The notes beneath the pieces are model-generated. The model had not been told where the DNA came from and did not search any database. It saw only the letters and a list, made by a program, of their open reading frames with translations. The position numbers were made by a program, and so were the translations under genes. This document shows, piece by piece, positions 22,319 to 52,796 of a stretch of DNA of 64,000 bases; position 1 is the first letter of the stretch, and each line of letters starts with the position of its first letter. This stretch comes from a candidate division FCPU426 bacterium (GTDB lineage Bacteria > Oederibacteriota > PGYV01 > Palsa-1178), in contig CAWIXE010000002.1 in assembly GCA_963840035.1 (NCBI GenBank), positions 578,236 to 642,235 of the forward strand, written 5' to 3'.

Positions 22319-23806
22319 GTGAACCTAATCGGATATGATATTGGAAGTTCATCAATAAAAGGGACTATCATTAACGCGCAGACCGGTAAAGTCATTGCGT
22401 CAGCGTTTTATCCCCATAAGGAAATGGAGATAATAGCAAAAAAGGCCGGATGGGCCGAGCAGGACCCGGAACTCTGGTGGAAAAATCTCATATTAGTTAC
22501 TTCCGCGCTGAAGAAAAAGGCGGGAAACGCCCTGAAAGAAATAAAGGCAGTCGGCATATCCTATCAAATGCATGGCCTGGTATGCGTTGATAAAAATCAA
22601 AAACCCTTAAGGCCTTCCATAATTTGGTGCGACAGCAGGGCGGTCATGCTTGGCGATAAAGCCGCTAAAAAAATTGGGGAAAATACATCCTTAAAACACC
22701 ACTTAAACCTTCCCGGTAATTTTACCGCGGCAAAGCTAGCCTGGGTGAAGGAAAACAAACCCGCGATTTATAATAAAATTTACAAAGTAATGCTGCCCGG
22801 GGATTATATTGCCATGAAGTTAAGCGGGGGCATAGCGACCAGCGACTCGGGGTTATCGGAAGGCATATTCTGGGATTATCAGAAATCCGCTCCTTCAAAA
22901 CTTATCCTTAGCGCGTTTGGAATTGATGAAAAGCTGCTCGCTGATTACGCGCCATGTTTTTCAATACGCGGTGAAGTATCCCGCGAAGCGTCTGCCGCGC
23001 TTGGAATCCCCGCCGGAGCCAAAATATCGTACAGGTCCGGGGACCAGCCCAATAACGCGTTTTCGCTAAACGTCCTTGAGCCCGGAGAACTTGCCGCGAC
23101 CGCCGGGACATCGGGTGTTGTTTACGGCGTCTCGGATAAGCCTTCATATGACATTAAATCAAGGGTCAATACTTTTATACATGTAAATAATTCCAAGGGA
23201 TATCCCAGATACGGAACACTGATGTGTTTAAACGGAACGGGAATACTTAACAGCTGGATGAAAAAGAACGTGGCAGGCGGGATTGATTACCCGGAAATGA
23301 ACACTCTCGCCGCGGGTGTAAAGCCCGGTTCTGAAGGTGTTTTTATACATCCTTACGGCAACGGAGCTGAGAGGACGCTGGAAAACATGTGTCCCGGCGC
23401 GTCAATCACCGGATTAAGCCTGACAACGCATACGAAGGCGCACCTTATGAGGGCGTCGCAGGAAGGCATAGTATACGCGCTGAACTATGGCGTCGGCATC
23501 ATGAAACAGATGGGGATAAAAGTGAAAAAGGTCAGGGCCGGTAACGCGAACATGTTCTTAAGCCCTGTATTCAGGGAAATATTCGCAGCGGTAACAGGCG
23601 CTGTAGTGGAACTTTACGACACTGACGGGTCGCAGGGCGCGGCGCGCGGCGCGGGAATTGGCGCGGGTATATATAAGGACAACAAAGACGCTTTTACCGG
23701 GCTTAAGGCGCTGAAAGTGATAACACCGGATAAGAAACTTGTAAAGTTTTATTCCGGGGCTTACGCGCGCTGGAAAGAAATGCTTGAGGATATGAAAAAG
23801 GCTTAA
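22319..23806 (+). CDS. xylB: FGGY-family carbohydrate kinase, probably xylulokinase
   Basis: N-terminal LIGYDIGSSSIKG and the FGGY C-terminal region GSQGAARGAGIGAGI. Sits immediately upstream of xylose isomerase. GTG start after GGAGG. Confidence 0.75.
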   Translation: MNLIGYDIGSSSIKGTIINAQTGKVIASAFYPHKEMEIIAKKAGWAEQDPELWWKNLILVTSALKKKAGNALKEIKAVGISYQMHGLVCVDKNQKPLRPSIIWCDSRAVMLGDKAAKKIGENTSLKHHLNLPGNFTAAKLAWVKENKPAIYNKIYKVMLPGDYIAMKLSGGIATSDSGLSEGIFWDYQKSAPSKLILSAFGIDEKLLADYAPCFSIRGEVSREASAALGIPAGAKISYRSGDQPNNAFSLNVLEPGELAATAGTSGVVYGVSDKPSYDIKSRVNTFIHVNNSKGYPRYGTLMCLNGTGILNSWMKKNVAGGIDYPEMNTLAAGVKPGSEGVFIHPYGNGAERTLENMCPGASITGLSLTTHTKAHLMRASQEGIVYALNYGVGIMKQMGIKVKKVRAGNANMFLSPVFREIFAAVTGAVVELYDTDGSQGAARGAGIGAGIYKDNKDAFTGLKALKVITPDKKLVKFYSGAYARWKEMLEDMKKA

Positions 23807-23830
23807 ATGCCAAAATAACAGGAGGATGAA

Positions 23831-24955
23831 ATGGAAAAGAGTTTTCATTCAATTTGTAAGTGGACTTTTAACGCGGGCAAAGGCGGTTTCGTGCCAAACA
23901 ATATGAGGCCGGAATGGTCGGGAGATAACCTGGATACCGTGGGCATCATAAAAATCATAAAAGACAAAGTGGCGCCAAGGCTTCCGAATAACGTCGTGCT
24001 TGGTTTTGAGGCGCATTACGACGGCGAATATAATGAAGACAACGCGGCTGATATAGCGGACGCGCTTGTTGACGCGGGAATGTACCTGGCTATGGCTACT
24101 CCGGGAGCTCACAGCAGGTTCGCGTACGGCGGGATATCGTCGCTTGACGCAAATGAAAGGGCGCGCGCGTGTGAGTTCGGGGAAAGATCGTTAAAACTGG
24201 TGTACGGCCCGCTTAAAAAAGCATGGCACCCGAAAAAGCAGCCTACGTTTGTCCTGTGGAACGGTTCTTTTGGATACGATGTAGCCACAGTGGGCATAGG
24301 GCGCATGTATAAGTATTTAAAGGAAAATGTGGCGGGACTCTGCAAGCTTGAAAAGAAATTAGGCGGCAAGATGATGCTGGCAATAGAGCCAAAACCAAAC
24401 GAAGGCCATCCTGCTATGCTTCTGCCAACAGTGGCAAGCGCGATAATTTTCTGGAAAAAACTCGGAGAGGAATTCGGAATTGACGTAAAGCGCACCGGGG
24501 TTAACAAGGAATTCGGCCACTCGGAAATGATAGGCCTGGACCATGTTTATGATACAGTGGAGGAAATAGACAATTCCATGCTTGTACACATGCACTTAAA
24601 CAGCCAGGGTTATAACGACGGCATAATCATGGGCGGACCGGGAAAGTATGACATAGACAACGGAGCCAGGATTAACGGCATGAACATAGCCATTGCCGGG
24701 CTCATACAGGACGCCGGATATTCAAGGTGGAAGGGCCATGACATGCAGCCGCGCGCGTATGATAATGAGGAGCAGGCCATAGACAGGGTTGTGCGCTCAG
24801 TCCTTTCGTGGGAAGCGTGCGAAACAGCAGCCAGGAATATTGATTACAAGAATCTTAATAAAGCGCTCAATAACCGCGAAACAGCAAAAGCTGAGGATGT
24901 CATGAGGCACGCGGTAGTCGACGCGCAGAAAATATTTGACCGGCTTTACAAGTAG
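23831..24955 (+). CDS. xylA: Xylose isomerase (short, class I/actinobacterial-type)
   Basis: KWTFNAGKGGF resembles the N-terminus of class I xylose isomerases. The metal-site motif IEPKPNEGHPAMLLPTV matches the class I XI consensus FAIEPKPNEPRGDILLPTV. HSEMIGLD is also present. Confidence 0.85.
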   Translation: MEKSFHSICKWTFNAGKGGFVPNNMRPEWSGDNLDTVGIIKIIKDKVAPRLPNNVVLGFEAHYDGEYNEDNAADIADALVDAGMYLAMATPGAHSRFAYGGISSLDANERARACEFGERSLKLVYGPLKKAWHPKKQPTFVLWNGSFGYDVATVGIGRMYKYLKENVAGLCKLEKKLGGKMMLAIEPKPNEGHPAMLLPTVASAIIFWKKLGEEFGIDVKRTGVNKEFGHSEMIGLDHVYDTVEEIDNSMLVHMHLNSQGYNDGIIMGGPGKYDIDNGARINGMNIAIAGLIQDAGYSRWKGHDMQPRAYDNEEQAIDRVVRSVLSWEACETAARNIDYKNLNKALNNRETAKAEDVMRHAVVDAQKIFDRLYK

Positions 24956-24962
24956 GCCCCGG

Positions 24963-26414
24963 ATGATAAAAAAACTGGCGGTATTGGCTCTACTTGCCGG
25001 GGCGTTGGCCATGATTTTAGGATGCGCCGTCCCAATAACCATTAAAGAGGTAAAACCTGTGACTGATGGGCCTGTAAAACCGCTTGAAGAATTACAGAGG
25101 GATTTCGCGGAACTGCGTTATGGTATGTTCATTCATTTTGGCATACTGACATACACGGGTTCCTGGTCGCAGAAAAACCTTGATATCAGCAAATTCAACC
25201 CGGAAAACCTTGACTGCGGCCAGTGGGCTTACGCGGCAAAAGCAGGGGGCATGAAGTTCGGCGTGCTCACAACAAAACATCACGACGGTTTCGCGCTATG
25301 GCCTACACAAACAAGCGATTTTTCCGTTAAGGCAATCCCGTGGCGCGGCGGCAAGGGCGACGTGGTCAGGGAGTTTGTGGACGCGTTCAGGGCAAAAGGC
25401 CTCCAGCCGGGATTATATTACTCGGTATGGGATAATACAAAGGGAATCGGCAACAAGCCGGTTACCGAAGCTGACATAGAGTACGTCGAAGAACAGCTTA
25501 AAGAACTGCTGACAAATTACGGGCCAATTCCGTTGCTCGTCCTTGACGGTTATTCCTGGAAAATGGGGCACAAAGCAATACCATACGACAGGCTCAGGGC
25601 GTTCATCAAGTCGCTGCAGCCAAACTGCCTCGTAATAGACCACACGCATCTGCAGTGCCTGTATGACAATGACCTTGCTGTGTTTGAAGAGCCCAAAGGG
25701 GTCTTCGCGCCAAAAGGTAACAAAGTGGCATCGGCGCAGGACCAAAAAATCATCGGCGGCAATGACTGGTTCTGGGGGCCGTCGACCGAAATGGAAAATC
25801 CGATGAGTTTAAAGGACCTGGTTGAAGGCCACCTGATACCGCTTGAGGAAAGATACGCGGTATTCATATTAAACTGCCCGCCGAACAGGCAAGGGCTGAT
25901 GGATGGCAAGATAGTTACAAGGCTTGCTGAAGCAGGCGCAAAATGGAAACCCAATATGAAAAGAAAACCGCTGCCAGCGCAGGGCCCGCAGAACGAACTG
26001 CCTGTTACGCCCGAGAGCGCCGCGGCCACAAGCGGGAACGCGTCATTTGCCATAGACGCTATAAACGATTCGTATTTCTATTCAGTCTGGGAATCAGACA
26101 AACAGCTCCCGCAGTCGATTACTTTAGACCTGGGAAAATCATATCCTGACATAGGGGTGCTGTGTTATGTGCCAAAGTACATAACAGTGGAGAAACCCAC
26201 TGACGAAGGTGCCATAACTTCCTATGAAATATCGGTAAGCGTTGACAATGCTGATTTCAAGAAGGTGGCTGCAGGCAAATGGGCCGCTGATTCAGCCATG
26301 AAAACCGTTGCTTTTGGGGCAGTGCAGGCAAGGTATGTAAGGCTTACCGCTGTTTCCGCCAAAGATGGTTTCGCCGCGGCTACGGAAATCAGCGTCGGCA
26401 GGGCAATGAAATAG
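24963..26414 (+). CDS. GH29 alpha-L-fucosidase lipoprotein with a C-terminal F5/8-type C (discoidin/CBM32-like) domain
   Basis: Lipobox ILGCAV. GH29 core YGMFIHFGILTY...KHHDGFALWPT...YYSVWD. The C-terminal ~100 aa is proposed as a discoidin-type CBM. Confidence 0.85.
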   Translation: MIKKLAVLALLAGALAMILGCAVPITIKEVKPVTDGPVKPLEELQRDFAELRYGMFIHFGILTYTGSWSQKNLDISKFNPENLDCGQWAYAAKAGGMKFGVLTTKHHDGFALWPTQTSDFSVKAIPWRGGKGDVVREFVDAFRAKGLQPGLYYSVWDNTKGIGNKPVTEADIEYVEEQLKELLTNYGPIPLLVLDGYSWKMGHKAIPYDRLRAFIKSLQPNCLVIDHTHLQCLYDNDLAVFEEPKGVFAPKGNKVASAQDQKIIGGNDWFWGPSTEMENPMSLKDLVEGHLIPLEERYAVFILNCPPNRQGLMDGKIVTRLAEAGAKWKPNMKRKPLPAQGPQNELPVTPESAAATSGNASFAIDAINDSYFYSVWESDKQLPQSITLDLGKSYPDIGVLCYVPKYITVEKPTDEGAITSYEISVSVDNADFKKVAAGKWAADSAMKTVAFGAVQARYVRLTAVSAKDGFAAATEISVGRAMK

Positions 26415-26448
26415 AATTCGGATAATTTATGGGGGTTGTTTCATAAAA

Positions 26449-26477
26449 CGGTTGACTTAAAAGGCTTTTTCAGTATA
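26449..26477 (+). promoter_or_regulatory. Near-consensus sigma70 promoter
   Basis: TTGACT, a 17-nt spacer, then TATAAT. Confidence 0.6.
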
Positions 26478-26560
26478 ATTAGTGTAATTAGGGTTCACGT
26501 TTACCCTGAATGATGAAACGTATAAAAGAAAGATATTCTATTAAATTTAAGGAGGATAAG

Positions 26561-27199
26561 ATGAAAAAAGTTTTAACGGTTTTTGCAGTATGTGTAATTG
26601 TTCTTGTTCTGGGTTTTTCAGTAGGATGCAAAAAAGCGGCAACAAGCAACCCGACACCGGAACCCACGCCGGTACCGACAGTTGTATTAGAAGATTTTGC
26701 GACAGCAGACCTGGGAACCAACGCGTTTAACGGCGCGTGGTTCGGTTACAGCAAGTTTGATACGAACAAAACAGACGATCCTTATGGTTTTGGCGTACTG
26801 GCGCCCGGATATGATTTCACCGGATATGCCGCGTACCTTACAGCAACCGTTGGAACAGTTTTAGGAGCTTATGGCGTGTGGTTTGGCTGCAATGTGTCAT
26901 CAACCGCCTCGGCAAATATTTCACAATATACCGGGATAAAGTTCTACGTAAAAGAGTCTGGCGGAGCAAACTGTAAGATTTCGGTCCTATCGGACCTGAC
27001 ATCAAAAAATTACCAGTATACATTTACAACTACGTCAAACTGGGCGCTTGTGACTGTCCCGTTCTCTTCGTTGACTCAGGAAACCACGGATTCGGTGACA
27101 ATCAATGATGTGCTCGGTACGGCAACAAGGATACTCTGGTCGAATGGTACAAAACCCCAGACACTTTATCTCTATCTGGATCAAATTGTACTCTATTAA
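26561..27199 (+). CDS. Small surface lipoprotein with a beta-sandwich, CBM-like domain; hypothetical
   Basis: Lipobox LGFSVGCKK, a Pro/Thr linker PTPEPTPVPT and an aromatic-rich, Gly-rich beta-strand pattern. AGGAGG RBS. Confidence 0.5.
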   Translation: MKKVLTVFAVCVIVLVLGFSVGCKKAATSNPTPEPTPVPTVVLEDFATADLGTNAFNGAWFGYSKFDTNKTDDPYGFGVLAPGYDFTGYAAYLTATVGTVLGAYGVWFGCNVSSTASANISQYTGIKFYVKESGGANCKISVLSDLTSKNYQYTFTTTSNWALVTVPFSSLTQETTDSVTINDVLGTATRILWSNGTKPQTLYLYLDQIVLY

Positions 27200-27208
27200 A
27201 ATGTGATA

Positions 27209-27245
27209 AAGCGGGGAGCTGAAAAGCTCCCCGCTTTAATTTTTG
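27209..27245 (+). terminator. Rho-independent terminator
   Basis: aagcggggagc-tgaaa-gctccccgctt followed by taattttt. Confidence 0.8.
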
Positions 27246-27253
27246 GAGGGATA

Positions 27254-28555
27254 ATGAAAAAAATAACCGCAATCATAATACCGGCCTTAATTACTGCCCT
27301 GCTTTTATCCGCGTGCGCGAAGAAACAGGAAAAGATACGCGTCATGCACTGGGGCGATGTCATAGAAATGGGCAACGTCAATACCATAATAAAAGATATT
27401 AAAAAAACAAAAGGCATCGATGTTATCCAGGAACGCGCGCCGGCCGGCAACTCTTATATGGAAAAAATACTCACACAGGCGGCCGCGGGCATGGCGCCTG
27501 ATATTGTTTTTGTTGAAGTAAGCAATTTTAAGGACCTCTACGACAGGGGGCTGCTGCTTGACCTCGGGCCTTTCATGGAAAAAGACGCCGCTAAAGAGCT
27601 TGACCTGAAGGCGTATTACCCGGAAATAGTGGACAGGTTCACCATTGATAATAAATTATACGTAATACCCAGGGACATAGCGCCGATATGCGTTATATAT
27701 TACAACAAGAAAGTATTTAATGACGCGGGAATCAAATATCCCAAAGACAACTGGAACTGGGCTGAATTCCTCGATACCGCAACAAAACTGGTAAAAAAGG
27801 AAGGCAATAAAATTACACGCTATGGCTTCCTTGATGAGTGGACCATATGGGACGCCTGGGTATATTCTAACGGAGGCGCGCTGGTGGACAATGTAAAAAA
27901 ACCCACGAAGTGCGTCCTTGATTCGCCTGAGGCAATAGAGGGCATGCAGTTCAGGGCAGACCTTTCATATAAGTATAAGGTCGCGCCTGAACCCTCGGTA
28001 GTGGCGCAGTCATCGCAGGGATGGTACGGGACAGCGGGCATGTTCGTAAACGGACAGGTCGGCATGTTTTATACCGGCTACTGGAAATCAAGCTTTTTCA
28101 GACAGCAGCAGGACCTGGACTGGGATATTGTGATGTTCCCGAAAGGTCCAAAAGGCAAAAGGGCCTTCCCGACAGGCGGTTCAGGATATGCCATAACAAG
28201 CCAGTGCAAGAATCCCGCGGCAGCCTGGGAAGTATTGAAAAAACTCGCGGGCGAAGAGGGGCAGAAGGTGCTCGCAAGCCAGGGCGGCCTGCAGCCCGCG
28301 ATAATCAAGCTGGCTGAATCAAAGCAGTTTATGGATGATAATAAACCGGTAAATAAGAAGATAATGCTTGAGGCTGTAAAATACATAGTATTCAGCCCGC
28401 TTTTAAAGACGTGGGACGAGATAAACATAGCCCAGCTCGGGCCTGTCCTTGACGACGTATGGAGCGGCAAATCAACGGCTGAAAAGGCGATGAAAAAAAT
28501 AGTGCCGAAGATAAATAAGGAATTTTTTCCCGTTAAAAAAGAAGAGAAAAAATAA
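27254..28555 (+). CDS. ABC transporter sugar-binding lipoprotein (family 1 extracellular solute-binding protein); no permease genes are adjacent
   Basis: Lipobox LLSACAKK. A length of about 430 aa and the MalE/SBP_bac_1 fold pattern (KYPKDNWNWAEF, WGEP-like aromatic patches). Confidence 0.75.
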   Translation: MKKITAIIIPALITALLLSACAKKQEKIRVMHWGDVIEMGNVNTIIKDIKKTKGIDVIQERAPAGNSYMEKILTQAAAGMAPDIVFVEVSNFKDLYDRGLLLDLGPFMEKDAAKELDLKAYYPEIVDRFTIDNKLYVIPRDIAPICVIYYNKKVFNDAGIKYPKDNWNWAEFLDTATKLVKKEGNKITRYGFLDEWTIWDAWVYSNGGALVDNVKKPTKCVLDSPEAIEGMQFRADLSYKYKVAPEPSVVAQSSQGWYGTAGMFVNGQVGMFYTGYWKSSFFRQQQDLDWDIVMFPKGPKGKRAFPTGGSGYAITSQCKNPAAAWEVLKKLAGEEGQKVLASQGGLQPAIIKLAESKQFMDDNKPVNKKIMLEAVKYIVFSPLLKTWDEINIAQLGPVLDDVWSGKSTAEKAMKKIVPKINKEFFPVKKEEKK

Positions 28556-28596: not shown

Positions 28597-30924
28597 ATGA
28601 CAAATACGGTTCTCTTTGCGCGTGCTGCCGCAGGCGGTATGAAAAGAACGGCAGGCAAAATGTTTATGGCGTTGTTCTTATTTGCGGTTTTTGCTGTCGG
28701 CGTTTTTGCGGCTCCTGCTGCGGGAAATAATGAAGAGCGTATTTTCGTATCCCAGAAGGACGCGCTGTATAATGATCTTTCAACACTTGCCGGGGCAGGG
28801 CTTATTAAGTCAAAAGACGCTGATTATTTTCTGTATAATCCCATAACAAAAAAACAGGCCGCCGGGTTTATAATTGAGGCGCGTTATTACCTGGGGGTAA
28901 CACGTCCGGCTGAAGACGCCGTTGATGAAAAGAAATTTACGAAAGTCATCAATTCCTGCGCTTCCGGATTACAGGAAGAAATAAAATCAGCGCCGGCATT
29001 TGCCGTTGTTGCTGTAAATGAATCTGAAGCGCAAAGCCGGCTTGATGGAGTTGAGGCGGCGATAAGCGACGCTGAAAGCGCCCGTAACGAAACGTTCTTT
29101 AACTCCGGTTCGTCCCTGAAAATCGAGGGCATAATAAGCGCTAAATACACGGACCTTGGAGCTTATGGCGTATGCCCGTTCAACCATTCGGCTTTTACCG
29201 GCACATATATGCAGCTGCTGATCTCAAAAAGCTTTTCAAGCGACCTGTCCTTAAGCATGTACTTAAACCTTGAACCGCGTTACAACGACCCTGTCATAGG
29301 CACAGCATATCCCGATTTTTTTACTCCGTCAAATATTATGGACAATTTCTCCATGAGCTTAAACGCGGGCCCGTGGAAAATAAGCGGCGGGACCATCTGG
29401 GAGGATATTACTTCCTTTATCGCCTCGCAGGGGCCTTCAGACAGGCCCTGGATATTTGAACGCGACCAGCTGGCGGCCGATGAAAAGGCAAAGGACCATT
29501 ACGAGACCATTTTCCGCAATTATTTTCAGTCCCTGGATGACAGGTGGTCAAAACACCCGTGGATGGGGCTCGAAGTATTTAATGACAAACTCTTCGGCAG
29601 GGACCAGCTGAAACTCATGGCCGGAAAGGCCAATAACTTTTATACCAATTATTTATATGAGTTCGGCGCGCGCTATACCAGGCGCCAGGATATACTCTTT
29701 TTTTCCGCGGCTGAATGGTCGGCAAATTTCTATAACACTTCAAACCAGAAAGCTGAAGCGTTTGCCATGCAGGACGCGGACCCGTTTGGACTGATTGCCG
29801 GCGATACCATCGCGGGCGGGGACGTCAAAGCCACGCTGTTTGGCCTTTTTAAAATTTCCGGTGAATTTGAATATTCAAATTATTACGCCAGGTACGTGAC
29901 ATCGACTCCGATGCCTTACACGCAAAAAGGCTCGGCCATGTACGCGAATCTGGTACCGTCATTTTTACCGAAGCAGATTTACCTCGGGGCCAGGTATACC
30001 AGGATAGACCCTGATTATGTGGCGCCGGCATCCGGCGTATCCGATACGAGCGTCAAATCAATTGACGCGGCAGACCCGGCAAAAGTCAAACTGGACAGCC
30101 TGACCACGATATCCGACCCCACAACTCTTGAAAACAATATGAACAAGATTGAAGTATCGGCCCGGCTGAATGTGCCGTACTGCCTTTTAAGGCTTAACTA
30201 TGGAGTGTCCTCGCAGCTTAGGGCGACGGGAAATATGTTCTATTCCAGGAGGTATGTCATAGGGACGTCCATCTGGTGGAACGCGTTTTACTCCAACTAC
30301 GGTTTTCTGGACACCGCCTCAGGCCAGCACGCGGCAATTATAAATTACAATAATAACAGGTATGATTATGACCCGTCTTTGACAACCTACAGGCTCGCTG
30401 AGATAATGGCGGGCGGGAATGGCGGCCTCGCGACAGACGAATGGACATCCTCAAGGGAGTTCATGGTCTCTTCGGACGTCACAAAAGACACGATAAAATA
30501 TAAAACAAACGCGGTCGCCGATTTAAGGGTTGAATTGAGCAGGTTTGTAGGCCTGCGTCAGCCTCTCTTTCTGCACGCTTACGGTGAACTCAACAGCCTT
30601 TCAAACGGGACTGATTACATAGTCAAGTATGACCCGGCGAGGCTTTTTTCCCAGCTTATTTTAACTTCAACAATCGTTTACAACCCCGTGAACAATATCT
30701 GCATCCTCGGATATTTCGGCTCTGAGGCGTGGGCGTCAAAAAGCACGCTGCCGCATGAGATTGACTACCTTGACTGCATGGCCGGTCTCGGCGCTGATTT
30801 TGACATATCGGGCAGGGCCGGCCTTTTTATAAGGGTAAAGAATTTTTTCCATAAGGATAAGTTCATATCCGGCAATAATTTCCACGGATGGCAGATAACA
30901 GGCGAGCTTAAGAGTTTCTTCTAA
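28597..30924 (+). CDS. SLH domain, coiled coil and large beta-barrel outer-membrane protein (OmpM/SlpA-like porin), paralog 1
   Basis: After the signal peptide, ALYNDLSTLAGAGLIKS...NPITKKQAAGFIIEA fits the SLH consensus. A predicted coiled-coil segment follows. Then come about 550 aa of alternating Y/N/S-rich beta-strands, with a C-terminal aromatic residue (GELKSFF). Confidence 0.6.
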   Translation: MTNTVLFARAAAGGMKRTAGKMFMALFLFAVFAVGVFAAPAAGNNEERIFVSQKDALYNDLSTLAGAGLIKSKDADYFLYNPITKKQAAGFIIEARYYLGVTRPAEDAVDEKKFTKVINSCASGLQEEIKSAPAFAVVAVNESEAQSRLDGVEAAISDAESARNETFFNSGSSLKIEGIISAKYTDLGAYGVCPFNHSAFTGTYMQLLISKSFSSDLSLSMYLNLEPRYNDPVIGTAYPDFFTPSNIMDNFSMSLNAGPWKISGGTIWEDITSFIASQGPSDRPWIFERDQLAADEKAKDHYETIFRNYFQSLDDRWSKHPWMGLEVFNDKLFGRDQLKLMAGKANNFYTNYLYEFGARYTRRQDILFFSAAEWSANFYNTSNQKAEAFAMQDADPFGLIAGDTIAGGDVKATLFGLFKISGEFEYSNYYARYVTSTPMPYTQKGSAMYANLVPSFLPKQIYLGARYTRIDPDYVAPASGVSDTSVKSIDAADPAKVKLDSLTTISDPTTLENNMNKIEVSARLNVPYCLLRLNYGVSSQLRATGNMFYSRRYVIGTSIWWNAFYSNYGFLDTASGQHAAIINYNNNRYDYDPSLTTYRLAEIMAGGNGGLATDEWTSSREFMVSSDVTKDTIKYKTNAVADLRVELSRFVGLRQPLFLHAYGELNSLSNGTDYIVKYDPARLFSQLILTSTIVYNPVNNICILGYFGSEAWASKSTLPHEIDYLDCMAGLGADFDISGRAGLFIRVKNFFHKDKFISGNNFHGWQITGELKSFF

Positions 30925-30945
30925 TATATTACGGAGGTAATTAAA

Positions 30946-35982: not shown

Positions 35983-36123
35983 TTTAAGAATACAATGAAA
36001 TAACACGTCTTAATATCGGTGTAAGCGATTCCGGAAACATCGCGAAGGCCGGGGTTTCACCGCATAAACAGGCACGGCAGCATAGCTGTCCCGGAAAGGG
36101 ACATGAATATTACGGAGGAAACG

Positions 36124-45901: not shown

Positions 45902-45905
45902 AAAC

Positions 45906-47009
45906 ATGAAAGGTAGTGCAATGATGAAAAGAAAAATATTGTTATTGGCAGTTTGCGCGCTGGCAGCGCTTATTGTTTTTCAGTCGTGCGCGTCAGCGTT
46001 TTTGGAAAAAGCCGGTGATAACGCAGTGGAAGGATTTAATGTAAATACTAAATTTGCATGGACTACAGGGGCGCCTGTAATACTGCCGCAGCCGGAAAAA
46101 GGGCGTGAAGTTGTATCTGCAAAAGACCCGAGCGTTCTGTTTTATAACGGTAAATGGTATGTGTTTTATACAACCTGCGATACTAAAGGCGCATGGAGCA
46201 TGCAGTTTGTTAGTTTTAAGGATTGGAAGGACGCGAAAAAGGCAAAAGCTTATCCCAAGGACAACAATCCAAACCTGCAGGGATATCACTGCGCGCCGAA
46301 TGTGTTTTATTTTACGCCCCAGAAGAAGTGGTACATGGTATTCCAGTCAGGCCAGCCGCAGTATACGACAAACGATAATATAGACAATCCTGACGGATGG
46401 ACAAAGCCGCAGGATTTTTTCAATGGAGCCCCTCCGGGACTGGAAAAAGGTCAGTGGGGCCCGGAATGGCTTGATTTTCATGTGATTTGCGATGATAAAA
46501 ACGCGTACTTAATGTTTACCGGGGATAACGGGAGATTGTACCGCAGCAGGACAAAACTTGAGGATTTTCCCAATGGCATGGGCAATCCTGAGCTTTGTCT
46601 TAAGGGCAAGGAGAGGGGCGACGTGTTTGAAGGTTCTATGGCTTACAAAATAAAAGGTCAAAATAAATATCTTCTGATTGTTGAGGCGTTTGGCGCGCCT
46701 ACTTATGACAGGTACTACAGGAGTTTTGTGGCTGATTCGCTTGACGGCGAGTGGAAAGAACAGGCAGGTACTTGGGAAAACCCGTTTGCCGGTTTGAATA
46801 ACGTTAAATTTGATGAAGGCGTAACACCCTGGACAAAGGATATAAGCCACGGGGAACTTATACGGACAGGTTATGATGAGAAGATGGAACTGGACCCTGA
46901 AAACATTCAGTTCCTGTTCCAGGGACGCGCGCCCGAGAGCAACGGCATGCAGTATCATTTACTTCCTTATAAAATAGGGCTATTAAAGGCTGTTAAAACT
47001 CAAAAATAA
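45906..47009 (+). CDS. Five-bladed beta-propeller glycoside hydrolase lipoprotein (GH43/GH62/GH117 clan; subfamily unresolved)
   Basis: Lipobox FQSCASA. AKDPSVLFYNGKWYVFYT carries the general-base Asp. Repeated W/Y-rich blades (KKWYMVFQSG, NAYLMFTGDNG). Confidence 0.55.
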   Translation: MKGSAMMKRKILLLAVCALAALIVFQSCASAFLEKAGDNAVEGFNVNTKFAWTTGAPVILPQPEKGREVVSAKDPSVLFYNGKWYVFYTTCDTKGAWSMQFVSFKDWKDAKKAKAYPKDNNPNLQGYHCAPNVFYFTPQKKWYMVFQSGQPQYTTNDNIDNPDGWTKPQDFFNGAPPGLEKGQWGPEWLDFHVICDDKNAYLMFTGDNGRLYRSRTKLEDFPNGMGNPELCLKGKERGDVFEGSMAYKIKGQNKYLLIVEAFGAPTYDRYYRSFVADSLDGEWKEQAGTWENPFAGLNNVKFDEGVTPWTKDISHGELIRTGYDEKMELDPENIQFLFQGRAPESNGMQYHLLPYKIGLLKAVKTQK

Positions 47010-47146: not shown

Positions 47147-47228
47147 ATGCCTGCCGGGGGGGTCAAATTTTCTTATGGCCTGCGCTACTGCGCAATCCAT
47201 AAGAAAATATGCCCCCCCCGGCAGGCAT
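47147..47228. repeat. Long hairpin with G8/C8 tracts (32-nt arms, about 19-nt loop)
   Basis: atgcctgccgggggggtcaaattttcttatgg ... ccataagaaaatatgccccccccggcaggcat. Confidence 0.8.
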
Positions 47229-47287
47229 AAATGGAAAAGCTCCGGGGCAGAACTAACCCGTTAATTTGTAGGGCCTCTTATTTCGTG

Positions 47288-47313
47288 TCGTAGGGGCGAT
47301 TCACGAATCGCCC
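47288..47313. repeat. REP-like hairpin unit sharing its 5' prefix with the 20992/21100 doublet
   Basis: tcgtaggggcgattcacgaatcgccc, with a 9-bp stem; compare tcgtaggggcgagccggtggctcgccc. Confidence 0.7.
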
Positions 47314-47371
47314 GCACTGTCACGGTACTTCGTTTTGGATGGAATACGTAATACGACTACAAGGAGGTAAA

Positions 47372-49343
47372 ATGAGAAAAGTATGTCTTATATTTTTGAC
47401 AATTTCACTGTTTTCAACAGCTTTACTTGCGGGTACCATGGATACTACGATAGCGGTAAATACTACAGTGACGGTGAATACGTTCAAGCCGTTTAATGTT
47501 TTCGGAAATAATACCAACGGATGGACAAATCCTGTGGCTGTGAAGGATAAGATACAGGGCGCCGGAAATTATCTGTCTGCGCTATCCAGGAGGCTCGTGG
47601 GGCGATTCCTTTTTCTGGAACAGCAAAGGCGAATACGATAAGGACGGCAACTGGTCGCCAGGCACAGCTGAATACGGGAAAAGCACAACCGGAGATCTTG
47701 TATATCACCAGAAATATATGCTTGATGATGATAAAACAACCGCGTGGAAGTCTAACGCCGATACCGATTTCCCAAACAGCCAGTGGGTGTACCTGGATTT
47801 AAAAGAAAAGAAAAACCCGGATAAATTGACCATATCATGGGGCAGTCCATACGCGAAAAAGTTCACTGTCCAATACTGGGACCCGGCGGACGGCAGGCAA
47901 TGGATGCCGTATGACGCCGATAAAAGTTCATGGCTTGATACGTCGGCAAAAGAGACAGCCGGCACCGGTGGGGTACAGGAAGTATCATTTTCGCAGGTTA
48001 ATACACAGTATGTAAGGATACTATTGACAGCCAGTTCTGAAGGGAAATCCGGTATTTACTCGGTTGTGGACTTGGACATATTTGAAAACGGACGGTCAAT
48101 ACTTTCCAAAGACACAAATTCAGTTGTGGTTTCCTCCTGCGATACTGCGGCAAAACTTGACGCTAACGGGCCTTCGTGGATATTTGGGTTTGAACAGTAT
48201 ATGGAATTCATGAAGTCCTTCGGCCCGATTAAAGCCGAGCCTCTGATTATAGTGAATCTGGGCAGCGGCACGCCTGAGATGGCCGCGGCGTGGGTTAAAT
48301 ACGCGAATAAAGTTAAGGGTTACGGTATTAAGTACTGGGAGATTGGAAACGAAAGCGGAGGCCAGTGGGAAACCGGCGGCCCTATGAATGTGTATGACTA
48401 TACCAGGCGCTATATCAAATACTATGAAGCAATGAAGGCTGTGGATCCGTCTATTACAATCATCGCACAGGGGCAGGCGGACGGAAAATCATTAACTTAT
48501 GACGGGGTTTCAGCCATCGAGGCGTTTTTAGGAAGGCTTGCGAAAGAAAAGAAAACACATTACGCCGAAGGGCTGGTGACCCACCAGTACCCGAACTGGG
48601 GGCAGAAACTTGAGGATCTGCTCGCGTCGCCAAAAAAAGGCATGGAAGATACGGCCTCGCAGGTTAAAAAAGCGCTGGCCAAATACCCAAAACTGAAAAA
48701 CATACCTATATGGATAACGGAGTTTAACACGTCGGACCAGGTAAAGCCGCAGGATATCAGCGTGCACCTGGAAAACGGACTGTGGCTCGCGCAGTATATG
48801 CCAGAGTTCATACGCCAGTTCGGAAATAGGGGTTACATGGCCATGTGGGATGTTATGAATGGCGGCAGCGCGATAAATAACCCGACAGGCGGCGATCATG
48901 GTTACCTGCAGTCTGAAAGCGGGCCGTATCAGCATCAGGAGCGCGCCGATTACTGGACCATGAAAATGATGACGAATTACTGGGCAACCCCCGGGGATGT
49001 CAGGGAGCATACGATGGTTGAGGCGGAATCCGGAAACCCGATGCTCGCGGCATACGCCAACATAAAGCCTGATAAAACACTAGCGCTGCTCGTTGTAAAT
49101 AAGGACCCGGAGAATGCGTATAATTCAGCGATAACTATAAGCGGATACACACCCGTGCAGGAAGCGAAAACCTGGAAGTTTGACAGTGATAATTATAAAT
49201 GGGATGCCGGTTCTTTACCTTATCACGCAAACCCGGATAACCCTCCCACGGAGTCGGCAATCAACTACGCCGGGGAGAAATTTAATTTTGAGTTCAAACC
49301 TTATTCTATAACAGTCATAGAACTTAAGAAAAAGCAGGATTAA
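47372..49343 (+). pseudogene. Clan GH-A glycoside hydrolase (GH51/GH39/GH79-like) with an inserted F5/8-type C (CBM32-like) domain; one-base frameshift near 47580
   Basis: Frame 2 carries the signal peptide and N-terminus up to ...GNYLSAL. Frame 0 continues RYPGGSWGDSFFWNS.., then a discoidin pattern (TAWKSN..QWVYLDL..ISWG..FTVQYW), then the clan A acid motif WEIGNESGGQWETGG and the nucleophile motif IWITEFNTS. GGAGG RBS. Confidence 0.6.
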
Positions 49344-49371
49344 TAGCATATGTGGATAATGGAGGTAATTA

Positions 49372-51285
49372 ATGAAAAGGAAACTAAGTTTACTGATATT
49401 GTCCTTTATGTTCGTTATTGCCGCGTTTGCGGCTTTTGCGGCAGACGCACCATTTACTGTGGTTCCATGGAACGGGTATAAGGCAGCGGTTTCGCTGACG
49501 TATGACGACGGCGACCCCGTACACCTGGACCTTGTAATACCTGAAATGCAAAAGAGGCAGATGCGCGGCACATTTTTCCTTACCGCGGGTAATATATTAA
49601 GGAGCGAAGAATGGGCAAAAGCAGCGGCCTCAGGAATGGAGATAGGAAACCATTCCATGAAGCACAGGCACGCCAATGAACTCACAGCCGCGGATGAAAT
49701 AGAAGAAGTGGATACAGCGGGCAAAATATTAAAGGAACTTTCAGGACAGCCTGTGATGACCTACGCGTACCCGTTTGTCGAGATTACAAGCACCTTAAGG
49801 GCGCGCGTTGAGAAGGAATGCATCATGGCAAGAGGCGGCGGGCCGGGATACTATTATTACACACCTGATTCGGAACCTGACTGGTATAACATACACAGCC
49901 AGGGGACAGCTACTGAATATGGCTTTGAAAAATATAAGGACTGGATAGACCAGGACATGGAAACAGGCGCGTGGACAGTGTTTATGATACACGCCATAGA
50001 GGGCTCAAACTGGTTCCAGCCGGTGCCTAAAGACACTTTTATTAAGCTCCTTGACTATTTATACAGTAACCGCGGAGATGTCTGGACTGCGCCATTTGGC
50101 GAAGTAGGGGCGTACTGGAAGGCGCAAAAAACCATCGAGGCCGCTAAGATCGCGGATAAAAAAGGCAAAAAAATCATTAAGTGGAAAAAACCTGTGCCGT
50201 TCCCCGAGGGAGTTGTCCTAAAGGTACGCGTTAATACCGAAGGCAATATGCTCACCCAGGCCGGACAAAGGGTGCAGCCAATCGGGGATAATATCTATCC
50301 GGTTTCGTTTGACGCGGGTGAAATGACCATAGAGAAGGCCATGAAGAAAGATGTTTCTTTACAGGTAAACAACAAACCCGGTTTTTATACGGAAGGTAAG
50401 AAGATACTCGCCCCGGGAGGCGAAGAAGTGGTGTTTCGCGGCATTAATGAGATGTTTGTGTGGACGGACAAAGAAGGGGCAAAACTGCCGGAGATCGCGA
50501 AAACAGGCGCAAATTGCGTGAGGATAGTTTGGACCATAAAGGACGGGACAAAGGAAGAACTTGATAAGGTAATCACAAAATGTATCGCCAATAAAATGAT
50601 ACCGATAATCGAACTTCATGACAAGACGTGCAAGTGGGATGATGATGTGTTTAAGGACCTCACAGCATACTGGACAGACCCGGAAATGGTGAAGATAATA
50701 CAAAAACATGAAAAGTACCTCTTTATAAATTACGGAAATGAGATTGGCGACTGGAAAGTTACATCTGAAGAATACAGCGCAAAGTATTCCGCGGCCATTA
50801 AAGCCATGAGAAAGGCGGGCGTCCATGTGCCCATTATAATCGACGGCGCCAAATGCGGGCAGGACATGAATTTCTTTTATGCTGTTTCTGAAGATATAAA
50901 CAAAGCCGACCCGGACCATAACTTCATATTTTCCGTGCATATGTGGTGGACTGACAATGACCCGGTAAGAATTCAGGACGCCATCACCACGGCGGCTTAT
51001 ACAAAAGTCCCCCTTATTGTCGGCGAGTTTGCGGCAATGGGTGTCGGTTGCGCCGCAAATGTAGCGTATAAGACCATACTTGAAGAGTGCGCTAAGAATA
51101 ATGTCGGATGGCTCGCGTGGTCATGGGGCCCGGGCAACAGTGATTGCGCGCTTATGGACATGACAAAGGACGGTAAATTTGACACGCTCTACGGATGGGG
51201 AAAAGAAACTGCCCTGGATGATAAATACAGTATTAAAAACACATCAAAGATTCCGGAATATATTAAGCAAATGAAGGCGGAATAG
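49372..51285 (+). CDS. Bifunctional CE4 polysaccharide deacetylase (NodB domain) and GH5 endoglucanase/mannanase-like TIM barrel, secreted
   Basis: NodB motifs SLTYDDGDP, RGTFFL and GNHSMKH. The GH5 segment runs VVFRGIN...IIELHD...INYGNEIGD (acid) ...LIVGEFAAMG (nucleophile) ...WSWGPGN. Confidence 0.75.
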   Translation: MKRKLSLLILSFMFVIAAFAAFAADAPFTVVPWNGYKAAVSLTYDDGDPVHLDLVIPEMQKRQMRGTFFLTAGNILRSEEWAKAAASGMEIGNHSMKHRHANELTAADEIEEVDTAGKILKELSGQPVMTYAYPFVEITSTLRARVEKECIMARGGGPGYYYYTPDSEPDWYNIHSQGTATEYGFEKYKDWIDQDMETGAWTVFMIHAIEGSNWFQPVPKDTFIKLLDYLYSNRGDVWTAPFGEVGAYWKAQKTIEAAKIADKKGKKIIKWKKPVPFPEGVVLKVRVNTEGNMLTQAGQRVQPIGDNIYPVSFDAGEMTIEKAMKKDVSLQVNNKPGFYTEGKKILAPGGEEVVFRGINEMFVWTDKEGAKLPEIAKTGANCVRIVWTIKDGTKEELDKVITKCIANKMIPIIELHDKTCKWDDDVFKDLTAYWTDPEMVKIIQKHEKYLFINYGNEIGDWKVTSEEYSAKYSAAIKAMRKAGVHVPIIIDGAKCGQDMNFFYAVSEDINKADPDHNFIFSVHMWWTDNDPVRIQDAITTAAYTKVPLIVGEFAAMGVGCAANVAYKTILEECAKNNVGWLAWSWGPGNSDCALMDMTKDGKFDTLYGWGKETALDDKYSIKNTSKIPEYIKQMKAE

Positions 51286-51290
51286 CGCGT

Positions 51291-52796
51291 ATGAAATATA
51301 AAAATCCTGTAATACCCGGGTTTTACCCGGACCCCAGTGTCTGCTGTGTCGGCGGGGATTTTTACCTTGTCACCAGCAGCTTTGAGTATTTTCCCGGTGT
51401 ACCCATATTTCACAGCCGCGACCTGGTTAACTGGGTGCAAATAGGCCACGTCCTTGACCGCAAGAGCCAGCTGCCGCTTGAAAAAGCAGAATGTTTTTCA
51501 GGGATATACGCACCCACCATAAGGTATCATGAAGGCACTTTTTATGTGACAACAACAAACACATCCGGTATTGGAAATTTTATCGTATCAGCCAAAAACC
51601 CGCAAGGGCCGTGGTCGGACCCAATAGCAGTACCTCAGGGAGGGATCGATCCATCGCTTTTTTTTGACGCGGATGGAAGCGTATATTACACTACATCCGG
51701 CGGGGGCGCGCTGCAAAGTAAGATAGACATAAAAACAGGCAGGCTGCTCACCGAACCTGTGCTTGTATGGAAAGGCACAGGCGGAAGATATCCTGAAGCG
51801 CCGCATTTGTATTTTATAAATGGATGGTATTATTTAATGCTGGCGGAGGGCGGCACGGGATACGAGCATATGGTCACTATGGCGCGTTCTAAAAGTCCGT
51901 GGGGGCCTTTTGAACCCTGTCCGCGCAATCCAATACTGACACACAGAAGCATACCGAGCCTGATCAGGGCAACCGGACATGCTGATCTTGTTTTTACAGG
52001 GGAACACTGGTTTCTGGTATTCCTGGGAGTGCGCACATCAGGCTACGACGATACGCATAACCTGGGGCGTGAGACATTTTTAAGCCCTGTGACATGGCAT
52101 GAAGACGGATTCCCGGTGATAGGCAATAAAGGCATAATATCGGCTGAGATGGAGTCGCCTTTGGCTCCTGTTTTGGTACCTGAATTGCCTGCGCGTGATG
52201 ATTTTAACTCGGATAGAATTGCTTTTTACTGGAATTATCTGCGTAACCCCGATGAAAATTTGTATTCGTTAATAGAACGTCCCGGGTTCCTGCGGCTCAA
52301 GGGATCAAAGTACGGCCTTGACGATGTCGCGCCGACAGTATGGCTGGGCAGAAGGCAATGCCACCACAACGTTAAGGCAGCGGCCTGTATCGAGTTTAAA
52401 CCTTATAGCGCAAACGAAGAGGCTGGGTTATGCGTGCGAAAAAATGAAAATCATCACTATGAAATATTCCTGTCGTTAAGGGGCGGTAGAACATGCGTTG
52501 TGTTGAGGGAAACGATAGCGAACCTGAAAGTCGAGGTTGCGTCCGCGCCCGTAACGGAAGGCGTGGCTGAGAGCTGCATATTGGCTGTTGAAGCGGATGT
52601 AAACAACTATAGTTTTTCATACGGCCCGTCTGAAAAAGACCTGATACCGCTGGGAAATGGAATTACCCGCTATCTCTCATCGGAAATTGCGGGAGGCTTC
52701 ACTGGAGTCTATTTTGCCATGTACGCCGCCGGAAACGGCAGGCCATGCAAAAATCCGGCGGATTTTGACTGGTTTGATTATGCCGTAAAATCATGA
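51291..52796 (+). CDS. GH43 beta-xylosidase/alpha-L-arabinofuranosidase (XynB-like, with a C-terminal beta-sandwich)
   Basis: NPVIPGFYPDPSV and FYLVTSSFEYFPGVPIFHSRDLVNW, the canonical GH43 N-terminus. A length of 501 aa. Confidence 0.85.
   Translation: MKYKNPVIPGFYPDPSVCCVGGDFYLVTSSFEYFPGVPIFHSRDLVNWVQIGHVLDRKSQLPLEKAECFSGIYAPTIRYHEGTFYVTTTNTSGIGNFIVSAKNPQGPWSDPIAVPQGGIDPSLFFDADGSVYYTTSGGGALQSKIDIKTGRLLTEPVLVWKGTGGRYPEAPHLYFINGWYYLMLAEGGTGYEHMVTMARSKSPWGPFEPCPRNPILTHRSIPSLIRATGHADLVFTGEHWFLVFLGVRTSGYDDTHNLGRETFLSPVTWHEDGFPVIGNKGIISAEMESPLAPVLVPELPARDDFNSDRIAFYWNYLRNPDENLYSLIERPGFLRLKGSKYGLDDVAPTVWLGRRQCHHNVKAAACIEFKPYSANEEAGLCVRKNENHHYEIFLSLRGGRTCVVLRETIANLKVEVASAPVTEGVAESCILAVEADVNNYSFSYGPSEKDLIPLGNGITRYLSSEIAGGFTGVYFAMYAAGNGRPCKNPADFDWFDYAVKS

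Follow-up and report, generated by a model that had tools for sequence, protein, structure and literature searches.

For the uptake of large plant-glycan fragments across the outer membrane, essentially two designs are understood, namely the SusC/SusD systems of Bacteroidota and the TonB-dependent transporters (TBDTs) or small specific porins of Proteobacteria. The locus considered here lies at positions 22295-52796 of a 64,000-nucleotide stretch of contig CAWIXE010000002.1 (assembly GCA_963840035.1, positions 578,236 to 642,235), which originates from a candidate division FCPU426 bacterium and is referred to in its entirety as the window. The locus encodes a set of putative xyloglucan-degrading enzymes together with two adjacent, predicted outer-membrane β-barrel proteins, OMP-A and OMP-B, that may provide the uptake route for the oligosaccharides. 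A previous assessment made from the sequence alone (hereafter the original prediction) had put the cluster forward as a xyloglucan utilization locus of about 30 kb, while leaving its most unusual feature, the two barrel genes at 28597-33054, without comment.

In its enzymes, the locus resembles the xyloglucan utilization locus (XyGUL) of Xanthomonas citri (Vieira et al. 2021, PMC8245568), which likewise belongs to a non-Bacteroidota diderm, encodes homologous proteins of glycoside hydrolase (GH) families GH74 and GH31 and of carbohydrate esterase (CE) family CE20 (E = 7e-151, 1.5e-154 and 1e-93, respectively), and has xylose catabolism genes adjacent to it. However, the Xanthomonas XyGUL features two TBDTs and periplasmic debranching with GH35 and GH95, whereas the locus in the window is devoid of a TBDT and instead encodes the barrel pair with its S-layer homology (SLH)-like domain and stalk, a solute-binding protein (SBP), lipoproteins resembling carbohydrate-binding modules (CBMs), GH2, GH29 and a cytoplasmic GH31. 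In Ruminiclostridium cellulolyticum and Anaerocellum bescii (PMC4780118, PMC12710961), extracellular GH74-type enzymes generate Glc4-based oligosaccharides, which are imported by an SBP and an ATP-binding cassette (ABC) transporter and processed by a cytoplasmic α-xylosidase, a scheme that the window shares if its importer is assumed. These organisms are monoderms with permease genes in the cluster and a cytoplasmic β-galactosidase, while the bacterium of the window has an outer membrane to cross, an SBP without a permease in the locus and an exported GH2. The Bacteroides ovatus XyGUL follows the same logic of a co-regulated cluster, with an endo-xyloglucanase and glycan-binding lipoproteins at the surface, a barrel, and exo-glycosidases (GH31, GH2, and arabinofuranosidases), yet its SusC-like TBDT, SusD, GH5_4 and GH3 have no counterpart in the window, whose barrels have neither a plug nor a TonB box and show no sequence relationship. 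The proteins for glycan binding differ as well, with CBM11/CBM4_9-like and SBP folds rather than those of SusD or SusE/F. Taken together, the locus combines Xanthomonas-like enzymes, clostridial compartment logic and Bacteroides cluster logic, while its outer-membrane part belongs to none of these.

For the barrel proteins, OmpM of Veillonella parvula and SlpA of Deinococcus radiodurans offer a comparison, as their architecture resembles the one predicted for OMP-A and OMP-B, with a signal peptide, a probable SLH-like domain, a coiled-coil stalk and a C-terminal barrel. The trimeric OmpM, a porin with 16 strands, is fastened to peptidoglycan through its SLH domain together with a triple coiled coil (PMC10628300), and it acts as both tether and uptake channel; SlpA has 30 strands, and both are homotrimers with housekeeping functions. 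In contrast, the pair in the window comprises two divergent paralogs (three in the related locus L016) that are always co-encoded in glycan loci and whose SLH-like domain is not scored by Pfam. A further point of reference is the cellulose system of Fibrobacter succinogenes with Cel51A (Fisuc_3111/FSU_0382), the product of the most highly expressed CAZyme gene of this bacterium. Distant pairs of OMP-A- and OMP-B-type genes (A-B pairs), which are devoid of SLH, immediately precede the gene for a CBM30-CBM11-GH51 protein organized like Cel51A and lie near Opp-type importers and GH94/GT35 phosphorylases. Published models for Fibrobacter differ in that they invoke TonB-dependent uptake, and the mechanism and outer-membrane route of its cellodextrin transport are stated to be unknown (PMC6851124). 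A single-cell study of Goldbacteria (PMC7031533), which equates them with FCPU426 in agreement with the labels of the related metagenome-assembled genomes, noted that CBM11 and GH5/8/9/44 are abundant; outer-membrane proteins, porins and SLH did not turn up when its text was searched by term. A literature search on SLH-barrel/OmpM proteins in polysaccharide utilization and on Goldbacteria outer-membrane proteins, of incomplete coverage, returned no prior description of the pair; its novelty is unproven.

OMP-A and OMP-B match no Pfam or NCBIfam family, the sole match being a weak, sub-threshold one to OMP_b-brl in Pfam at the C-terminus of OMP-B, and are distant paralogs of each other (24% identity over 416 residues, E = 3e-5). 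AlphaFold2 (AF2) models were built on family alignments and reached pLDDT values of 67 (pTM 0.60) for OMP-A and 70 (pTM 0.64) for OMP-B. DSSP assigns about 22-24 strands to each model, in an all-β region of some 570-600 residues that is preceded by a long helix (residues 146-166 in OMP-A, 99-131 in OMP-B), and both proteins have a C-terminal phenylalanine. Foldseek searches of the PDB with either protein returned outer-membrane barrels only, i.e. SlpA/SDBC, MtrB, porins, TBDTs and ushers, at TM-scores of 0.2-0.4, with SlpA/SDBC (8agd) ranking first for OMP-A and MtrB (6r2q_B), followed by porins and TBDTs, for OMP-B. In addition, a profile of the N-termini of the OMP-B family matches the SLH and stalk chains of Veillonella OmpM (8bys, 8bym, 8bz2) with E-values of 3e-5 and 3e-4; OMP-A carries ITKxEAA instead of TRxE. 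The modeled architecture with stalk helix and C-terminal β-barrel is thus OmpM/SlpA-like, while the predicted strand number differs from the 16 of OmpM and the 30 of SlpA. Neither protein gave a match to Plug or TonB_dep_Rec at E≤5, which sets them apart from TBDTs. In its proposed mode of action, the pair resembles a tethered channel of the OmpM type or a capture module of the SusC/SusD type, yet it falls outside OmpM/SlpA by strand number and by its paired paralogs, and outside SusC/SusD by the missing plug, TonB box and SusD partner. The family is a rare one. A word-indexed search of 5.8e9 proteins retrieved 12 relatives of OMP-A and 19 of OMP-B, and an exhaustive profile search with OMP-B among 1.84e9 proteins (E≤1e-3) defined a wider family of 506 representatives, much of which consists of barrel-only proteins of about 570 amino acids. 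For ten representatives that were checked, Pfam gives no family above threshold, and no source name other than 'hypothetical protein' is attached to them.

The genomic context of the pair carries the argument for a role in glycan utilization. Loci were gathered by scanning genomes and metagenomes once each and by several exact look-ups; 31 distinct loci (designated by L numbers in the following) were left after near-identical copies had been collapsed. According to profile searches, the A-type gene lies immediately upstream of the B-type gene in all 24 distinct loci with upstream DNA, which argues for a hetero-oligomer rather than a homotrimer. The pair adjoins glycan-binding, glycan-degrading or glycan-importing genes without exception (31/31), and one to four lipoproteins are encoded beside it in every locus. 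The nearest labelled relatives are metagenome-assembled genomes (MAGs) of Goldiibacteriota/FCPU426, Elusimicrobiota and Firestonebacteria, in agreement with the non-Bacteroidota diderm host envisaged in the original prediction.

Three types of loci can be distinguished. In type I, associated with xyloglucan, the gene order is A, B, a CBM11/Mann_GBD-like lipoprotein, an SBP and then GH74, or GH44 instead in L012; frequent companions are GH29, GH2, CE20, GH62, a GH51-like enzyme, a xylose-isomerase-like (XI-like) protein and GalT/GalK. The gene order xylB, XI-like, GH29, lipoA, SBP, A, B, GH74, lipoB and GH31 (lipoA and lipoB encoding small lipoproteins, see below) is retained in L001-L003, and rearranged versions of this core occur in L004, L006, L007, L012 (with GH44), L019, L032 and L035. 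Type II loci, associated with cellulose, comprise GH8 and/or GH9, the pair, a secreted CBM9-like protein and then three to four lipoproteins, several of which are CBM11-like. An example is L013 (285-11500) with GH9, A (805 amino acids), B (715 amino acids), the CBM9-like protein and three lipoproteins. A protein encoded in this locus (P0030) is located on the same 1.7 Mb contig as OMP-A and OMP-B according to the protein database, and the organism hence holds at least two substrate-specific A-B pairs. Type III loci contain distant, SLH-less pairs together with SBP_bac_5, two permeases and one or two ATPases upstream and a CBM30/CBM11 (lipo)protein after the pair, with a GT35 or GH94 phosphorylase downstream (L039 7105-15290; L045 1-11979; L041-L043). 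With their complete Opp-type ABC importer, these loci amount to operons for uptake and phosphorolysis, and the CBM protein of L039 is the one that shares its CBM30-CBM11-GH51 architecture with Cel51A. Variations of the pair are also found. In L015 (7695-11716), the A-type protein bears an N-terminal CBM_4_9 (E = 6e-15) in place of SLH and the B-type protein is a mere barrel of 571 amino acids, while L016 harbors three SLH-like paralogs along with three lipoproteins. In the L015 genome, tails of the type 9 secretion system (T9SS) occur nearby.

Sequence identity to L001 follows the gradient expected for exposure, from the XI-like protein (90%) via GH31, GH74 and GH29 (75-77%), the SBP (70%), lipoB (61%) and the barrels (55-57%) down to lipoA (39%). 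RF3 of the L001 organism shares only about 70% identity with that of the window (P0245). This hints at a transfer of the locus, or of its cytoplasmic part, between lineages.

The locus consists of 18 genes on the plus strand without a break in the open reading frame (ORF) listing, separated by gaps of -20 to 329 bp (Table 1). This confirms the presence of a real clustered locus of carbohydrate-active enzymes with the extent originally proposed, and the cluster is no chance grouping, since synteny of its core extends to several further genomes and metagenomes. That this conserved core is directed at xyloglucan is well supported, since GH74, GH31 and the CE20-type esterase match solved xyloglucan enzymes. 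The first of these, which had been predicted as a GH74-like BNR enzyme cleaving the backbone, aligns over its full length to solved xyloglucanases (6p2m, E = 7e-224; range to 1e-118), further ones being 7kn8 (7e-151), 6p2n, 2cn2 and 5fkr (to 1e-123), and is regarded as the putative endo-xyloglucanase of the locus. The GH31 protein, suggested to be an α-xylosidase with a PA14 domain, is indeed closest in the PDB to the three solved xyloglucan α-xylosidases BoGH31A (1.5e-155), XacXyl31 (7kmp, 1.5e-154) and CjXyl31A (4e-132). Its PA14 domain is found in the C-terminal part (residues 628-759) and overlaps the start of the Glyco_hydro_31_3rd match in Pfam. In CjXyl31A and BoGH31A, PA14 is located in the N-terminal domain. 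For the predicted SASA-type O-acetylesterase, the assignment can be narrowed to the CE20 type based on matches to 9h4u (1e-122), 9ega (2e-110) and 7kmm (1e-93), the latter in two aligned stretches that together reach both protein ends; a homolog with 55% identity is present in L006. 7KMM stands for XacXaeA, the xyloglucan acetylesterase from the Xanthomonas XyGUL on which CE20 was founded (PMC8245568).

The family calls made for GH2, GH29 with F5/8C, GH36, the SBP lipoprotein and the CE4-GH5 fusion agree with Pfam/NCBIfam. GH2, with homologs of 40% and 60% identity in L004, would act on the β-galactose of L side chains, and removal of the α-1,2-linked fucose of xyloglucan is a plausible task for GH29, which recurs in L001, L006, L008, L012 and L032. 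As anticipated, a kinase and an isomerase-like gene lead the locus. The XylB-like kinase scores below the cutoff of the XylB model TIGR01312 (E = 8e-93, 311 versus 380 bits) and shares 78% identity with its L001 counterpart. The XI-like protein has no Pfam match but resembles class I xylose isomerases in the PDB (E = 8e-12), and the equivalents of E181, K183, E217, H220, D255, D257 and D287 are kept in the alignment. It is the best-conserved protein of the locus (87-90% identity in L001 and L008) and yet very divergent from known xylose isomerases, and it may represent a distinct isomerase subfamily and a marker for horizontal spread of the locus.

Regarding localization, inspection of the N-termini revealed lipoboxes in GH29, lipoA, the SBP, GH74, lipoB and probably GH62, and type I signal peptides in OMP-A, OMP-B, GH2, CE20, the GH51-like enzyme and CE4-GH5, whereas XylB, the XI-like protein, GH31, GH36 and GH43 have no export signal. 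Thus, nine of the 12 GH/CE enzymes carry a lipobox or signal peptide, and the claim that nearly all are exported does not hold for GH31, GH36 and GH43, which suggests that debranching ends in the cytoplasm. A cytoplasmic α-xylosidase combined with an oligosaccharide SBP corresponds to the R. cellulolyticum route (PMC4780118). The SBP is most similar in the PDB to AbnE, an SBP for arabino-oligosaccharides (6rjy, E = 2e-38), followed by Lmo0181, and is encoded adjacent to the A-B pair with 61-70% identity in L001, L004, L006, L007, L019, L032 and L035. The two small CBM-like lipoproteins recognized in the original prediction (26561 and 35325) gain substance from the comparison as well, beyond their own weak matches and lipoboxes. 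The lipoA homolog in L001 (39% identity only) again matches CBM_11 weakly, and lipoA-like modules occur two to three times behind the catalytic domain of a GH8 enzyme in L009 and in a 1428-amino-acid protein, where Pfam calls CIA30/CBM_11 with E-values of 1e-14 and 1e-11. In L009 and L011, the catalytic domain of GH9 is followed on its C-terminal side by a lipoB-like module (E = 1e-12), and lipoB itself is 58-62% identical in L001 and L007.

Table 1. Predicted features of the locus and its surroundings (positions refer to the window).
Feature	Position	Strand	Basis and remarks
TonB-dependent receptor (TBDR)-like gene	16319-17920		CarboxypepD_reg, Plug, partial barrel profile
Promoter-like site	22263..22291	+	TTGACA-17-TAAAAT, 11/12, consensus match only; directly 5' of xylB
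XylB-like FGGY pentulose kinase, cytoplasmic	22295..23806	+	Pfam FGGY_N, FGGY_C
Divergent XI-like TIM-barrel protein, cytoplasmic	23831..24955	+	weak TIGR02631, PDB
GH29 α-L-fucosidase with C-terminal F5/8C (CBM32-like), lipoprotein (ILGC)	24936..26414	+	Pfam, lipobox
Promoter-like site 2	26452..26479	+	TTGACT-16-TATAAT, 11/12, consensus match only; precedes lipoA-SBP-A-B-GH74 module
lipoA, small CBM11/CIA30-like lipoprotein (SVGC)	26510..27199, likely start 26561	+	weak CIA30/CBM11 match, E 1e-3
Strong hairpin with T-run	27207..27238	+	14 bp stem, 8 GC pairs; directly 3' of lipoA stop codon
SBP_bac_1 oligosaccharide-binding lipoprotein (LSAC)	27254..28555	+	Pfam, lipobox
OMP-A, 775 aa; signal peptide, SLH-like helical domain, helix, barrel, end ...KSFF	28597..30924	+	AF2, Foldseek
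OMP-B, 702 aa; signal peptide, SLH-like domain, 33-residue stalk helix, barrel, end ...VMTF	30946..33054	+	AF2, Foldseek
GH74 endo-xyloglucanase, lipoprotein (IAGC)	33071..35218	+	PDB matches
lipoB, small CBM-like lipoprotein (FAGC)	35325..35924	+	weak CBM_4_9 match, E 9e-3
GH31 α-xylosidase with PA14 insert, without signal peptide	36103..38859	+	Pfam, PDB, N-terminus
GH2 (β-galactosidase-type architecture), signal peptide I	38867..41785	+	Pfam GH2 N/middle/C domains, DUF4982, GH2_C5
GH36 α-galactosidase, without signal peptide, accessory	41797..43662	+	Melibiase E 7e-108, GH36N
CE20-type (SASA-fold) acetylesterase, signal peptide I	43946..45901	+	PDB matches
GH62 α-L-arabinofuranosidase, probable lipoprotein (FQSC)	45906..47009	+	Pfam GH62 E 3e-60
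GH51-like clan A enzyme with signal peptide and F5/8C	47339..49343	+	split by +1 frameshift near 47575
CE4 deacetylase-GH5 β-mannanase-like fusion, signal peptide I, accessory	49372..51285	+	Pfam, PDB
GH43 with GH43_C2 (β-xylosidase/arabinofuranosidase type), without signal peptide, accessory	51291..52796	+	Pfam E 2e-85, 1e-53
PAS-HisKA-HATPase histidine kinase, soluble	53007..54203	+	Pfam

Based on these data, the following scenario can be proposed. The lipid-anchored GH74 would cut xyloglucan at the cell envelope into Glc4-based oligosaccharides, while lipoA and lipoB, presumably exposed on the surface, would retain the glycan. OMP-A and OMP-B may form a heteromeric outer-membrane complex that passes oligosaccharides of about 1-1.4 kDa inward without TonB; this passage would be passive, because neither plug nor TonB box is present. 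In the lineage of the window, the complex could be tethered to peptidoglycan via SLH domain and stalk in the fashion of OmpM. The exported CE20, GH29, GH2 and GH62 would then remove acetyl, fucose, galactose and arabinose, respectively, in an order that may vary from this outline, before the SBP lipoprotein delivers the trimmed oligosaccharide to an ABC permease that would be encoded elsewhere. In the cytoplasm, GH31 would free xylose, which the XI-like protein and XylB could channel into the pentose phosphate pathway. CE4-GH5, GH36 and GH43 would serve as accessory enzymes for acetylated galacto(gluco)mannan and pentose oligosaccharides.

It is on balance probable that the locus is a xyloglucan utilization locus of an uncultured, anaerobic, Goldbacteria-related diderm, in which further hemicellulases were bolted onto a conserved core and the products are taken up via the A-B route. 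The pair itself is best read as a TonB- and SusCD-independent outer-membrane module that captures and imports β-glucan oligosaccharides, its function as a channel being inferred. The wider proposal is more tentative and falls slightly short of an even balance: the pair and the CBM-like lipoproteins, with the SBP in the lineage of the window, would constitute an undescribed hetero-oligomeric apparatus for glycan import that is independent of TonB and SusC/SusD, tethered by SLH in Goldbacteria and duplicated per substrate, with SLH-less relatives among Fibrobacter-like and T9SS-carrying bacteria that may constitute the long-sought passage of cellodextrins through the outer membrane. Several observations weigh against these interpretations. 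No ABC permease is encoded in the window or in any of the xyloglucan-type loci, and the partner of the SBP is hence assumed. The middling confidence of the AF2 models and the low TM-scores render pore size, strand number and the presence of any plug uncertain, and the Pfam SLH model does not score on OMP-A or OMP-B even at E≤5. The best PDB matches of GH29 are 5k9h, 4zrx and AfcB (3ues), an α-1,3/4-fucosidase; all three presumably belong to GH29-B, the α-1,3/4-fucosidases. The ORFs scanned in the window, within and outside the locus, include no β-glucosidase (GH1/GH3). The supposed xylA reaches 66 bits against the cutoff of 447 in TIGR02631; K183 is retained along with six of the seven metal ligands, the exception being D245, which is changed to H, and K289 is replaced by Q. 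Moreover, GH5, GH36, GH43 and GH62 point to other hemicelluloses, and an ExbB-ExbD-TonB operon with a TBDR-like gene (14700-17920), 4-8 kb upstream of the locus, could be the importer. As alternatives, the pair might serve as a platform that is tethered to peptidoglycan, takes part in anchoring or export, and presents CBM lipoproteins and the lipoprotein enzymes GH74, GH29 and GH62 on the cell surface in the way MtrB holds the surface lipoprotein MtrC, with oligosaccharides entering by other porins or TBDTs, or the two proteins might be housekeeping OmpM-type tethers or general porins that reside in the locus by chance. MtrB as top Foldseek match of OMP-B (E = 9e-12), the lipoproteins adjoining every pair, the A protein fused to a CBM and the nearby TonB cluster speak for a platform. 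However, the TM-score to MtrB is only 0.35, relatives show no synteny of the TonB cluster with the locus, and in type III the pair sits in an operon that seems otherwise devoted to uptake alone, and this location inside ABC importer operons favors transport over display. A platform as sole function, the main rival reading, is regarded as unlikely, yet display and uptake are compatible and could be combined in one complex. A housekeeping role, which the OmpM-like N-termini and the occurrence of OmpM-type proteins as general porins and tethers in many diderm Terrabacteria (PMC10628300) might suggest, is very improbable in view of the glycan-related neighbors throughout the distinct loci, at least two pairs in one genome that each belong to a different glucan locus, barrels of about 570-600 amino acids against a 16-strand OmpM barrel of roughly half that size, and the complete absence of SLH in distant members.

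The choice of xyloglucan as the target invites a further alternative, in which the operon is a general hemicellulose toolbox with mannan (CE4-GH5, GH36), arabinoxylan (GH62, GH43, the esterase and XylA/XylB) and xyloglucan as equal targets. The CE4-GH5 fusion, predicted as a second xyloglucan backbone enzyme, matches mannanases only. All eight PDB matches of its GH5 domain (3wsu, 4fk9, 4y7e, 1wky, 3jug, 2whj, 1bqc and 2whl; E = 5e-32 to 3e-27) are β-mannanases or close homologues, which we take to be of the GH5_8 type, and no xyloglucanase, of GH5_4 or otherwise, was matched in the PDB at E<0.01; the original prediction had itself named this outcome as speaking against it. With one proposed backbone enzyme being mannanase-like and others fitting xyloglucan less well, the assertion that the enzymes match each linkage of xyloglucan has to be abandoned. 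GH36, GH62 and GH43 with GH43_C2 fit a toolbox too, the xylose catabolic genes would suit xylan equally, and gaps of 283 and 329 bp as well as promoter-like sites permit sub-operons. Yet no xylanase (GH10, GH11, GH30, GH8-type) is encoded in the locus, and the genes that remain beside the A-B pair in relatives are GH74/GH44, GH31, GH2, GH29, CE20, GH62 and the GH51-like gene. No GH5, GH36 or GH43 turned up in these neighborhoods; in particular, CE4-GH5 has no homolog in related loci and GH36 is absent from the flanks of all of them. CE4-GH5 and GH36 together look like a mannan add-on. Furthermore, the esterase is closest to the CE20 type, which includes the xyloglucan acetylesterase. The toolbox is thus a doubtful alternative, and xyloglucan stays the preferred target of the conserved core.

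Two further assignments had to be revised. Of the two enzymes predicted as GH43-type, the one at 51291-52796 indeed belongs to GH43, while that at 45906-47009 is a GH62 protein, a family of the same clan; its homolog in L012 (68% identity) adjoins the A-B pair. The GH51-like enzyme with CBM32 was correctly recognized in its F5/8C domain and its (weak) GH51 match, but hardly in its supposed removal of arabinose. Over the catalytic region, identity to the GH51 part of the CBM30-CBM11-GH51 protein with Cel51A architecture amounts to 31% (E = 2e-33), whereas only about 100 residues match GH51 arabinofuranosidases, and a β-glucanase is therefore more likely. The gene is interrupted by a single extra base, as tblastn against the intact 670-amino-acid homolog from L006 switches frame at this point. 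The base lies in the context …AATTATCTG[T]CTGCGCTAT…. Homologs in L004 and L006 are intact (661-670 amino acids), and the frameshift stems either from recent pseudogenization or from an error in the assembly.

Beyond the locus, the surrounding genes are unrelated to it, i.e. an [FeFe]-hydrogenase, insertion sequence (IS) elements, PGI, the TonB cluster, RF3 and FliG_C fragments upstream of 22295 as well as an Imm5-like protein, a Mg-chelatase-like ATPase, IS30 and TPR proteins downstream of 54203. The region 14700-19194 comprises the ExbB-ExbD-TonB operon, the short TBDR-like ORF (533 amino acids) and two unannotated ORFs. This receptor may be truncated or fragmented and has no SusD neighbor. 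As the transporter of the locus, the cluster was ranked low, given that prfC and FliG-like ORFs intervene and that it is not syntenic in L001. Within 22295-54203, no Pfam match to SusD, Plug or TonB_dep_Rec was detected, and the locus is hence no polysaccharide utilization locus of the Bacteroidota kind; that it contains neither SusC/SusD nor an ABC permease had been foreseen, even though the TonB cluster lies nearby. Two short ORFs (175 and 116 amino acids) at 21169-22088, directly 5' of the locus, encode the FliG_C domain alone. Judging from genes at 1-4223 for a NuoF/GltD-like flavoprotein and the large subunit of an [FeFe]-hydrogenase, the organism is a fermentative anaerobe; the pairing of these two looks like the electron-bifurcating type. 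One IS200-like gene and two IS30-family transposase genes lie at 5647-8421 and 60100-61191, and a patch of low GC content (35-39%) extends across 4-8 kb of the window. A composite transposon between the two IS30-like genes was rejected, as their proteins are only 55% identical and oppositely oriented with housekeeping genes between them. Rfam and tRNA scans of the window detected no RNA features.

Some signals may relate to regulation. The promoter-like site in front of xylB favors a start of this gene at 22319, as chosen in the original prediction, over 22295. The hairpin behind lipoA is a possible attenuator or partial terminator that may give lipoA higher expression than the downstream genes, and its position argues for an SBP start at about 27254. 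The histidine kinase at 53007-54203 is a possible sensor for the locus; weak homologs are encoded directly upstream of GH29 in L006 and L032.

With regard to enzymology, the fusion of CE4 to a mannanase-like GH5, the conserved, divergent XI-like protein and the GH31 with a PA14 insert in its C-terminal part are of interest in their own right. The outer-membrane part of the locus suggests a third design for glycan uptake in little-known, uncultured cellulolytic phyla besides the two outlined at the beginning, in which large barrels and CBM lipoproteins feed an ABC importer and thereby add an outer-membrane stage to the Gram-positive route. If true, this would explain how Goldbacteria and related bacteria take up xyloglucan oligosaccharides of 1-1.4 kDa as well as cellodextrins. 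The A-B pair could then serve as a marker for glucan utilization loci in genomes without SusC/SusD. For Fibrobacter, it is a possible candidate for the outer-membrane route of cellodextrins and as such a lead, which would make the uptake step in Fibrobacter-like bacteria amenable to testing.

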